Source: Candidatus Iainarchaeum sp.
Lineage (GTDB): Archaea; Iainarchaeota; Iainarchaeia; Iainarchaeales; JAZDFD01
Length of the DNA stretch: 64,000 nucleotides
Reading direction: 5' to 3'
NCBI GenBank assembly: GCA_043808155.1
Contig: JAZDFD010000026.1
Span: 39,673 to 103,672 of the forward strand
Shown here: one piece after another, positions 16,587-34,328 of the stretch
How the letters are laid out: each line of letters begins with the position of its first letter
Position numbering within the stretch: position 1 is the first letter of the stretch
Notes under the pieces: model-generated
The model's input: only the letters and a program-made list of their open reading frames with translations
What the model was told of the DNA's origin: nothing
Database searches by the model: none
Program-made: the position numbers and the translations under genes

Positions 16587-16756
16587 GCACGGGTACCGAA
16601 GTGGTTAAACGGGACAGACTCAAAAAAACTTTTAGAAAAAGTTTTAGCAAAAGAAACTTTTCAGAAAAGTTTCATCAAAACTAAAGCTTTATCTTTATTG
16701 AATTTGAGAGATCTGTTGGCTTAGTGCCTCCGTAGGTTCGAATCCTGCCCCGTGCA
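16587..16756 (+). tRNA. tRNA-Leu(CAA) with an 86-nt intron at 37/38 (16625-16710)
   Basis: GCACGGG/CCCGTGC acceptor stem, ACAGA/TCTGT anticodon stem, CAA at 16621-16623, long variable arm, GTAGG-TTCGAAT-CCTGC T arm. BHB motif: CTCA/TGAG helix with AAA and AGA bulges. Confidence 0.92.
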
Positions 16757-16757
16757 T

Positions 16758-16936
16758 AGCCGGTTTCGTCCGGCTGTACCGAGATATGTGCACTGTTGCT
16801 TTGTGCAACAGCGCAGTAATATTTTTCGGAAACTGTGTCATAGCAAAAAGCGTACCCGATTTCTGCTTAGCAGAAATGGGCGCATTTCATCAGAGCTGAA
16901 ATAGCGTGGCACCCGTACTCGCCGGACGTGACGGCG
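16758..16936 (+). repeat. Structured tRNA trailer element, homologous to 44044-44169
   Basis: About 10 differences over 94 aligned nt versus the element after tRNA-Ala; multiple hairpins. Confidence 0.88.
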
Positions 16937-16953
16937 GAATCCTGCCCTGTACA
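16937..16953 (+). repeat. Degenerate duplicate of the tRNA-Leu 3' end (att-like)
   Basis: GAATCCTGCCCTGTACA versus GAATCCTGCCCCGTGCA at 16740-16756 (15/17 identical). Confidence 0.7.
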
Positions 16954-22787: not shown

Positions 22788-22850
22788 AAATAATCACCTA
22801 TCATAATGATATACAAAGAAATATTTAAAGATATCGATTCAAAAATAAAA

Positions 22851-22934
22851 CGCAAGGGACGAGATTCGAACTCGCGCTTCCCGAAGGAAACGGGCTTAGC
22901 AGGCCCGCGCATTAAACCACTCTGCCACCCTTGC
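22851..22934 (-). tRNA. tRNA-Ser(GCT)
   Basis: GCAAGGG/CCCTTGC acceptor, CGGGC-CT-GCT-AA-GCCCG, long variable arm, TTCGAAT T loop, G discriminator. Confidence 0.95.
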
Positions 22935-23070
22935 ACAACCCGATTGCGTACGGGTACTCCGCGTGCCATTTTCAATGGCACTGTCATCATTTCTGATTGC
23001 GTAGATTGGATCCGCAATTCCGCAATGCAATATGTGTGAGTTTTCGTTTGACTCAAACCCACGATAATAT
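22935..23070 (-). repeat. Long hairpin-rich leader of tRNA-Ser containing leader-type hairpins and a core module (23030-23070)
   Basis: ACCCG/CGGGT and GTGCCATT/AATGGCAC hairpins. ATATGTGTG..TTTCGTTTGACTCAA..CACGATAATAT matches the tRNA-Glu intron. Confidence 0.7.
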
Positions 23071-33814: not shown

Positions 33815-33985
33815 TTACTTAGAGCCGGTTTTTTTGGTTTTATGCTTAACCCTAAGTCTTTTTGTGCCGCATTTTCGGCATTTTAATGGTTTCTTGCCTT
33901 TACTGGAACGGTTCTTTGCATTGCATTTCATGCAAATCCAAACGTTCTCAAAAAGCCTTTTGTCAGCTTCTTCAAATCTTGCCAT
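33815..33985 (-). CDS. rpl40e: 50S ribosomal protein L40e
   Basis: Manual translation [25 protein letters not shown]...[12 protein letters not shown]. Confidence 0.93.
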
Positions 33986-34086
33986 AGTGTGTCACTTTTT
34001 ACTGTTTCCAATTTATTATTGTTAATAATGAAGATATAACCTATAACATTTAAAAGCTTACATTTCATAAAGTATGTTCAATATTT

Positions 34087-34257
34087 GCCCCTGTAGTGTA
34101 GCGGCCAAGCATCCTGCCCTTTCAAACCCGCTTTCGAGCGGGTGGGCCGAGATATGTGTGTTATTTCGTTTTGACTCAATAACACGATAATATTTGAAAT
34201 CATATCTTAGGCTTTCGAAGACAGGCGGTGACCCGGGTTCGAGTCCCGGCGGGGGCA
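34087..34257 (+). tRNA. tRNA-Glu(TTC) with a ~98-nt intron at 37/38 (34125-34222)
   Basis: GCCCCTG/CGGGGGC acceptor, CTGCC/GGCGG anticodon stem, TTC at 34121-34123, CCGGG-TTCGAGT-CCCGG T arm; CTTT/GAAG central helix with an ACA bulge. Confidence 0.9.
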
Positions 34258-34328
34258 ATTAACTTTTTATTTTTCTTAATCGCTGAAACTCTAAAATTTA
34301 AATAGTATTTATACGTTAAGTGTGACAG

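Follow-up and report, generated by a model that had tools for sequence, protein, structure and literature searches.

The route by which introns arrive in archaeal tRNA genes is described as still open in the available part of 10.64898/2026.10.13.758758, and several described systems offer points of comparison. In the Thermoproteales, related transposed introns occupy tRNAs of different identity within one genome and one order, at sites that permit a bulge-helix-bulge motif (available parts of PMC4033280 and 10.64898/2026.10.13.758758). In an archaeal tRNA-Trp gene, the canonical intron consists for the most part of a structured RNA, a box C/D guide RNA that EndA would release. Integration at tRNA ends in Caldiarchaeum subterraneum leaves a full tRNA, the insert and a partial copy of the tRNA 3' end (PMC4033280, in its available part). 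The non-autonomous repeats of prokaryotes that resemble miniature inverted-repeat transposable elements (MITEs) are short, structured, non-coding and multi-copy, with direct repeats of the target and a copy number that varies strongly among related genomes. Here we describe a repeat family, R1, and its relation to the tRNA-Glu(UUC) gene at positions 34087-34257 of the window, by which we mean the whole stretch of 64,000 nucleotides (nt) that was analysed. The window is part of a 1.08-Mb assembly (G000; 35 contigs, 35% G+C, 88% complete), whose host is treated as a member of the Iainarchaeales (DPANN). On balance, we think it probable that the intron of this tRNA gene consists of one copy of R1, a structured insertion element, followed by a 28-nt adaptor tail.

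When introns are allowed, ARAGORN calls a tRNA-Glu(UUC) with a 98-nt intron at 34125-34222; with introns switched off, the gene is missed. The Rfam tRNA model covers 34087-34257 with 38.8 bits (cut-off 29), and the intron sits at the canonical position 37/38. The exons yield a normal cloverleaf and share about 90% identity with the intron-less orthologue in G010, one of the relatives compared throughout, which are other genomes of the order Iainarchaeales, none of them from the family or genus of G000. According to ARAGORN, the gene is present as a single copy in the 88%-complete assembly.

R1, 61-70 nt in length, consists of hairpin 1 (with a UUUCG-type loop), the motif CCGAnnWUAUGUG, a variable covarying hairpin 2 and the motif CRRUAAUAW. 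Its covariance model was built from an alignment, A1, of 18 copies from G000, from which the tRNA-Glu intron and long forms were excluded and in which the copies trailing tRNA-Leu and tRNA-Ala were both included; because the calibration was shortened, the E-values given here are rough, the bit scores being unaffected. The model's top hit in the window is the intron, which it had never seen and which it scores higher than the two trailers on which it was trained (73.3 and 68.2 bits). An earlier note on this DNA had proposed that the intron is built from the same element that trails tRNA-Leu and tRNA-Ala, and the match bears this out; the note had set against itself the case of an intron scoring no better than controls under such a model, and what was found is a full-length match with an E-value of 3.7e-15. 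The parts of the gene, all on the forward strand, are as follows.

34087-34124, +: 5' exon of tRNA-Glu(UUC), positions 1-37 (ARAGORN, Rfam; 90% identity to the G010 orthologue)
34125-34222, +: intron of 98 nt at the canonical 37/38 position (ARAGORN with introns)
34125-34194, +: full-length R1 copy (cmsearch, 74.7 bits, E 3.7e-15, model positions 1-69 of 69)
34126-34143, +: hairpin 1, ACCCGCT-TTCG-AGCGGGT, 7 bp with a UUCG loop, beginning 1 base past the 5' splice site
between hairpin 1 and the shared 12-mer CCGAGATATGTG, +: linker GGG (read from the sequence)
34147-34158, +: conserved single-stranded/helix core CCGAGAUAUGUG (12-mer CCGAGATATGTG), with exact copies at 16779 and 44065
34157-34186, +: hairpin 2, a variable covarying stem with loop UUUCGUUUUGACUCAA (fold, covariation, R1 match)
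34185-34194, +: conserved 3' motif CGAUAAUAUU (= CGATAATATT), closing hairpin 2 (covariation pair 28/69)
34195-34222, +: non-R1 tail of 28 nt, in which CAUAUCUUAGGCUU clamps GGGCCGAGAUAUG and GAAG (34217-34220) pairs with the anticodon loop
34221-34223, +: 3' bulge AC/A of the predicted fold, the slash marking the splice site
34223-34257, +: 3' exon of tRNA-Glu(UUC) (ARAGORN, Rfam)

The hairpin, linker, 12-mer, second hairpin, AUAAUAUU motif and outer pairing that the earlier note had named all lie where it placed them. The 12-mer occurs exactly three times in the window (16779, 34147 and 44065), each time in the same register between two hairpins. The outer pairing, of 34144-34156 with 34201-34214, is imperfect, containing one bulged A and G-U pairs, and is present in the minimum-energy fold. 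Taken alone, the intron has a folding z-score of -3.95. The gene is followed at 34258-34277 by two T5 runs that form an archaeal-type terminator, and TTTAAAAG lies about 30 nt upstream of it (34048-34058).

The structure of R1 is well supported by covariation. Across the three stems of A1, 97.7% of the cells are paired, as against 32-48% when the partners are slid by 1-3 columns, and nine of the 17 pairs show changes on both sides across the 18 copies. The first pair of a 4-bp helix (columns 28/69) is A-U in nine copies and U-A in the other nine; in the intron, the same helix can be formed by AUAU at 34190-34193 and AUAU at 34152-34155. The invariant columns of the core are listed in A1. Seven spacer copies (contigs C1, C24, C28 and C31) form a subfamily with 92% identity outside hairpin 2 and 55% within it, although all seven hairpin-2 stems are perfectly paired, with stems and loops in discrete combinations. 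One hairpin-2 stem is found with either a short or a 'medium' loop in different R1 copies. Rfam, searched at gathering and at permissive thresholds, has no family for the R1 element beyond tRNA. Kink-turn, loop-E and tetraloop-receptor folds were considered for the conserved internal loop and dropped on inspection, since their defining G-A pairs are missing.

R1 is a genome-wide family and thus wider than first claimed. An initial search of G000 with the 12-mer and its context returned about two dozen copies of one architecture; the covariance model finds 44 hits at E<=1, 36 at E<=1e-3 and, with stricter filters, 31 at E<=1e-5. The element is therefore present outside tRNA genes as well as in a canonical 37/38 intron, as had been suggested. 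The other copies discussed from the window are these.

16757-16823, +: R1 copy directly 3' of tRNA-Leu(CAA) (16587-16756), 1 nt from the tRNA end, 73.3 bits
44043-44108, +: R1 copy immediately behind tRNA-Ala(UGC), within the 16S-23S spacer, 68.2 bits
22937-22986, +: R1 copy reversed with respect to tRNA-Ser(GCU) (22850-22935, minus strand), hairpin 1 two bases from the tRNA 5' end, 34.2 bits
23007-23071, +: second reversed R1 copy upstream of tRNA-Ser(GCU), 40.6 bits; the two reversed copies lie 2 and 72 nt upstream

When 40 R1 hits in G000 were set against the ARAGORN tRNA calls, four fell inside called introns, namely on the strand of the tRNA in Glu(UUC), Arg(CCU) and 'Pyl(CUA)' and on the opposite strand in Tyr(GUA). 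Nine more stand no further than 5 nt from the 3' end of a tRNA, all nine on the strand of that tRNA, and 19 lie more than 150 nt from any tRNA. In copies at tRNA genes, hairpin 1 faces the boundary of the mature RNA, be it the 3' end, the 5' end (in reversed copies) or the 5' splice site at 37/38. The 'tRNA-Pyl(CUA)' (G000:C20:3956-4108) was called by ARAGORN with a 75-nt intron just past the anticodon, and its intron and trailer are both R1. It is probably a tRNA-Arg(UCU) with a canonical 37/38 intron, because the loop becomes CU-UCU-AA once the anticodon stem is moved by one base and no other Arg(UCU) is called in the genome.

In the rest of the order, R1 was found in 15 of 40 genomes at E<=1e-3 and in 31 of 150 at E<=1e-5, with 1-14 copies each. 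These represent 12 of the 31 other families; G175 has 14 copies and the others 1-6. The remaining 119 of the 150 genomes show none at E<=1e-5, and there were no hits in 11 genomes of the phylum from families f33-f37, which lie outside the order searches. A survey of the 29 best loci, one per genome, placed five within introns, each on the strand of its tRNA (Ser(GCU) twice, Ser(UGA), Ala(CGC) and Glu(UUC)), three directly 3' of a tRNA on the same strand, three directly 5' on the opposite strand and three at 45-126 nt from a tRNA, with no tRNA within 200 nt of the other 15. Eleven of the 29 are thus within or directly abutting tRNA genes, and wherever a copy abuts a tRNA, it does so with hairpin 1. 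An exception is seen in G037 (L063, C14, 131-207), where R1 stands behind tRNA-Glu(CUC) with its AUAAUAUU end, not hairpin 1, facing the tRNA. Tandem pairs of R1, 20-30 nt apart, are found at L022 (G018:C4:39124-39292), L030 (G010:C1:95762-95916) and G168:C10:3177-3333; the G018 units are each preceded by a common flank of 14-16 nt (CCCTCAGTCCGCCC..), and a similar flank accompanies the R1 of G032, which belongs to another family. A degenerate R1 pattern gave no hits in viral_contigs. A metagenome scan for 'tRNA-Glu loop plus hairpin 1' returned more than 119 stretches; none of the 80 matches listed is R1 at E<=1e-3, and they were set aside as chance.

R1 behaves as an insertion element: target duplications flank copies, and relatives show an empty site. 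For 20 non-tRNA copies of G000, flanking repeats were assessed against 300 random genome windows each. Nine of these copies are flanked by a direct repeat of 13-40 nt, each with an empirical p<=0.02; the repeats are specific to their locus, and the left one ends no more than 6 nt from the hairpin-1 end. In the spacer between the L19e and L18 genes, the last codons and the stop of L19e, which also form the L18 ribosome-binding region, are duplicated, one copy on either side of R1. This spacer measures 116 nt here; of 13 relatives, 12 have -4 to +10 nt and one has 46 nt. The comparison concerns one site and is made across families rather than strains. A composite insert of about 180 nt follows tRNA-Leu(CAA), with R1 first and a reversed GC hairpin (GCCGGACGTGACGGC, 16921-16953) last, and then comes a copy of the tRNA's last 17 nt that is identical at 15 of the 17 positions. 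Partial tRNA ends behind such hairpins also occur at four other tRNAs. The GC hairpin, which is the reversed counterpart of hairpin 1, is present 27 times in the genome, several times directly before tRNA 5' ends or partial tRNA 3' ends. Relative to flanking open reading frames of at least 100 aa, assigned automatically, the same 20 copies comprise nine in co-directional spacers (seven antisense and two sense), four convergent, one divergent and six unclassified. An antisense bias of the operon-spacer copies, which had seemed complete by eye, was not taken as firm in view of the automatic count of seven to two.

The predicted fold of the precursor suggests how an R1 copy could be removable from tRNA-Glu. 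At its minimum energy (-63.5 kcal/mol, z -2.8), the pre-tRNA has, in order, the anticodon stem, the 3-nt bulge AC/A, a helix of 4 bp that joins the anticodon loop to GAAG at 34217-34220, 2-3 unpaired bases that include the 5' splice site, hairpin 1, and a long arm that includes pairing of the tail with GGGCCGAGAUAUG. A fold held to the canonical register, its two 3-nt bulges separated by the 4-bp helix, has -36.0 kcal/mol against a minimum of -37.2 kcal/mol, a cost of 1.2 kcal/mol. Hairpin 1 is predicted to be the helix beyond the 5' bulge, as a local hairpin at a three-way junction and not a continuous helix. The same layout of splice site, 0-2 nt and hairpin 1 recurs in Ser(GCU) of G015, Ala(CGC) of G040, Arg(CCU) of G000 and Glu(UUC) of G053. 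In G015, hairpin 1 directly follows the called 5' splice site; the ARAGORN 3' boundary is uncertain there and likewise in G027. In G040 the intron holds a full-length unit whose hairpin-1 end pairs with a reversed GC hairpin at the 3' end of the intron, forming a continuous outer helix. Unrelated tRNA-Glu(UUC) introns of relatives also open with a hairpin, one base past the splice site. G000 encodes one PF01974 protein, a 179-aa EndA with N-terminal and catalytic domains that matches the M. jannaschii EndA 1a79 over its full length; its nearest named relatives come from 'Candidatus Iainarchaeum', Diapherotrites and AR10-type metagenome-assembled genomes. According to the available part of PMC5829648, DPANN alpha4 enzymes with an extra loop go together with more disrupted tRNA genes.

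We propose the following model. R1 would be mobile, now or formerly, at the DNA level in the Iainarchaeales, and this mobility would underlie its dispersal; new copies would arrive with a target duplication of 13-40 nt. In the pre-tRNA, the anticodon stem would be followed by the 3'-strand bulge AC/A and a 4-bp central helix (anticodon loop with the GAAG of the tail), and then by a 3-nt bulge CA/A on the 5' strand, flanked by hairpin 1 where a continuous outer helix would otherwise stand. Pairing with CCGAGAUAUG would let the tail clamp the remainder of R1. Both bulges would presumably be cut by the single alpha-type EndA and the exons joined by a ligase, and the RNA thus released would have no function of its own. 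Splicing of pre-tRNA-Glu at both bulges is what the modelled fold leads us to expect. A DNA run, X3, contains a contig corresponding to 33981-34124 with six differences that runs into the R1 hairpin, where the hairpin-1 stem carries a compensatory C-G to G-C change, and another contig that enters the tail; judging from these contigs, a close relative population keeps the intron. An apparent joint of 34113 with 34223 in DNA run X1 was rejected, since 11 other letters stand between its two sides and it derives from a different, intron-less tRNA.

Several observations weigh against this interpretation. Eleven of the 20 non-tRNA copies lack a significant flanking repeat, and the flanks of the intron itself share only CTTTC (p about 0.75), which is no significant target duplication. 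The short form has no terminal inverted repeats, with hairpin 1 at one end and an A/T-rich tail at the opposite end; only longer composite units, of the type of the tRNA-Leu insert and the G040 intron, are terminated by a second GC hairpin in reverse. The genome, at 88% completeness, gave no hit to Cas1, RVT_1 or Y1_Tnp, and its two TnpB and two integrase hits show no sequence in common with R1 and no adjacency to it, the TnpB loci having been compared with the genome by BLAST. We know of no transposase family that matches duplications of 13-40 nt. Hairpin 2 is hypervariable and yet always paired in copies with 92% identity elsewhere, and single-stranded motifs stay invariant and pairing near-perfect across the families of the order; these features look more constrained than expected of a decaying selfish repeat. 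The outer helix of the splicing motif is discontinuous, while EndA of the alpha4 type is classically strict. Finally, the RNA-library contig X5 (depth 2) covers 34075-34222 unspliced, which may reflect DNA carry-over and was counted neither for nor against splicing. Among the assembled contigs, it is the sole one from an RNA library at the locus, and it begins 12 nt ahead of tRNA-Glu.

A broader claim would make R1 an 'intron-seeding' mobile element that has generated tRNA introns, leaders and trailers across an archaeal order. Its terminal hairpin would already provide the helix that EndA needs beside the splice-site bulge, so that a copy landing past position 37 would become removable with no more than 4 nt complementary to the anticodon loop, and a copy at a tRNA end would be trimmed away by end processing. 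Insertion would be transposase-less and accompanied by long duplications. We regard this claim as tentative and rather doubtful as it stands. If it is true, R1 would be the first identified donor family for the gain of archaeal tRNA introns; in any case, it is a concrete candidate for how archaeal tRNA genes gain them. One family is found in three settings at once, that is, as an intron, as leader or trailer and as a spacer insertion, and the question of intron origin therefore becomes testable. The recurrent local-hairpin design of splice sites in the Iainarchaeales also bears on the substrate range of DPANN alpha-type EndA.

The direction of these events may also have been the opposite. R1 could have begun as a tRNA intron or trailer and later spread to other tRNAs and to operon spacers, the spreading agent being an excised or read-through RNA, or its DNA. 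The history of the tRNA-Glu intron bears on this directly. The tRNA-Glu orthologues, whose inspection the earlier note had called for, are intron-less in 25 of 33 other genomes; seven have an unrelated intron at the same site, and one, in G053 from another family, has an R1-type intron of 89 nt. Six of the seven unrelated introns have no R1 at E<=10, and the seventh (G054) has none there at E<=1e-5. The G053 intron has a tail that matches that of G000, including the bulged A of the clamp, and by inspection the tail follows the R1 core and not the exon in both genomes. With a homologous intron in the same tRNA and at the same site in another family, the intron of G000 is not a private recent gain, and this speaks for a tRNA-borne origin. 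The same origin is favoured by the relatives with 1-6 copies, which carry them mostly at tRNA genes, tRNA-associated loci that fit a tRNA-borne beginning with later spread as well. It is also favoured by the five tRNA-linked copies in A1, which are 74% identical outside hairpin 2 compared with 92% in the seven-copy spacer subfamily, suggesting that the spacer copies are perhaps a younger burst. Against it, inheritance would need many losses or replacements given the intron-less majority and the seven unrelated introns; even in G053's own family, five genomes of one genus are intron-less, one has another type and one probably yet another. No reverse transcriptase was found in G000, and the R1 part of its intron is no nearer to that of G053 (77% identical) than to its own closest paralogue (80%). 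By these values, the sequences are compatible with an inherited intron that was lost many times, with its transfer as a whole and with gain on several occasions, and do not decide among the three. We see an origin within tRNA genes as a minority possibility. As for the earlier proposal that an element from outside tRNA genes has become an intron, the sharing of the element stands and the direction may have been either one, in view of the G053 intron and the 11 of 29 tRNA-linked loci in relatives.

It seems unlikely, although it deserves to be kept in view, that R1 is a functional RNA module of tRNA loci (acting in processing or termination, in protein binding or as a stable small RNA) that is maintained by selection, with intron, trailers and leaders as ways of delivering or using it and the spacer copies as a side effect. 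Such a module would account for motifs that stay invariant and stems that covary in 12 of the 31 other families, for the 11 of 29 best loci of relatives that lie at or in tRNA genes, for the strand agreement of all nine directly 3' copies in G000, for a conserved U-G pair that is found in 14 of the 18 A1 copies and is possible only on the forward strand, and for a hypervariable hairpin 2 that stays paired; the invariant single-stranded motifs across the order hint at a binding partner. It is because of this hairpin and these motifs that we retain the idea at all. It is hard to reconcile with the orientation of many copies, however. The copies before tRNAs, such as those at tRNA-Ser, and the intron copy in tRNA-Tyr are reversed, so that the host transcript bears the complement, and seven of the nine copies in co-directional spacers are antisense. 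With copies in both orientations relative to their host transcripts, the suggestion of one functional RNA released by two processing routes finds no support. Copy number also ranges from 0 to 31-44 within one order, with no copies at E<=1e-5 in the 119 genomes mentioned, and neither an Rfam family nor a box C/D match was found. That the likeness of intron and trailers might be chance, or convergence on stable hairpins, is a negligible prospect that has already been refuted: although the 12-mer with two mismatches allowed gives four matches, a number that 17 of 100 shuffled windows reach, the intron is matched over its full R1 length with 74.7 bits by a model that excluded it, and the three exact 12-mers stand in the same register.

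The remainder of the window and genome contains further tRNA-related features. Rfam identifies in the window a 16S-tRNA-Ala-23S operon, an archaeal RNase P RNA and five tRNA matches. The intron of tRNA-Leu(CAA) (16625-16710, 86 nt) comes from another hairpin family, rich in A/T; 28 nt of it, GAAACTTTT..GAAAAGTTTCATCAAAA, recur in the tRNA-Glu(UUC) intron of G168, and related introns of the form 'hairpin + GCGAAAAAUG' are present in tRNA-Glu(UUC) of G021 and G031. Intron families are therefore common to different tRNA identities and genomes in the order. Four of the 14 LAGLIDADG_3 hits in G000 (C6:33508-33783, C1:92157-92384, C6:23102-23281 and C13:8942-9127), free-standing genes of 265-361 aa, lie about 100-230 nt from intron-bearing tRNAs, namely Met, Ala(GGC), Leu(UAG) and Arg(UCG).

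Among the described systems, the omega-RNA lead has no bearing here, as PMC12558985, in its available part, reports no bulge-helix-bulge motif at those RNAs. A literature search, with most subscription papers outside its coverage, returned no description of such an element for DPANN or the Iainarchaeales. The guide RNA in the tRNA-Trp intron resembles R1 in that a structured RNA makes up most of a canonical intron from which EndA would release it. R1 differs in that the conserved columns of A1 show neither a C (RUGAUGA) nor a D (CUGA) box, the permissive Rfam search of intron and trailer gave no C/D family above E=4, and R1 has no Rfam match of its own; guide complementarity was looked for by inspection only. 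Reversed R1 copies further argue against one released RNA species. With the tRNA-end integration of Caldiarchaeum, R1 shares the order of full tRNA, insert and partial tRNA 3' end; judged against the available part of that account, its inserts are hairpins of 70-180 nt without a recombinase gene, and non-tRNA targets such as ribosome-binding-site and start regions are duplicated too. The MITE-like repeats agree with R1 in all the traits listed at the outset, unlike which R1 has, in its short form, no terminal inverted repeats, variable duplications of 13-40 nt, no partner transposase found, covarying stems, invariant single-stranded motifs across the order and a strong tie to tRNA boundaries. 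Like the Thermoproteales introns, R1 introns have sites predicted to permit the splicing motif and occur in different tRNA identities (Glu, Arg(CCU), 'Pyl' and Tyr in G000; Ser, Ala and Glu in relatives). Unlike those introns, as far as they are summarised in the parts available, R1 also occurs as trailers, as leaders and in the spacers of protein operons, in both orientations, with target duplications of 13-40 nt and an empty site, in a DPANN host with a single alpha-type EndA. Thus, tRNA introns with common sequence and short insertion elements are kinds already known; what is new is the combination, in which one family of covarying repeats provides introns, leaders, trailers and insertions with target duplications throughout an archaeal order.

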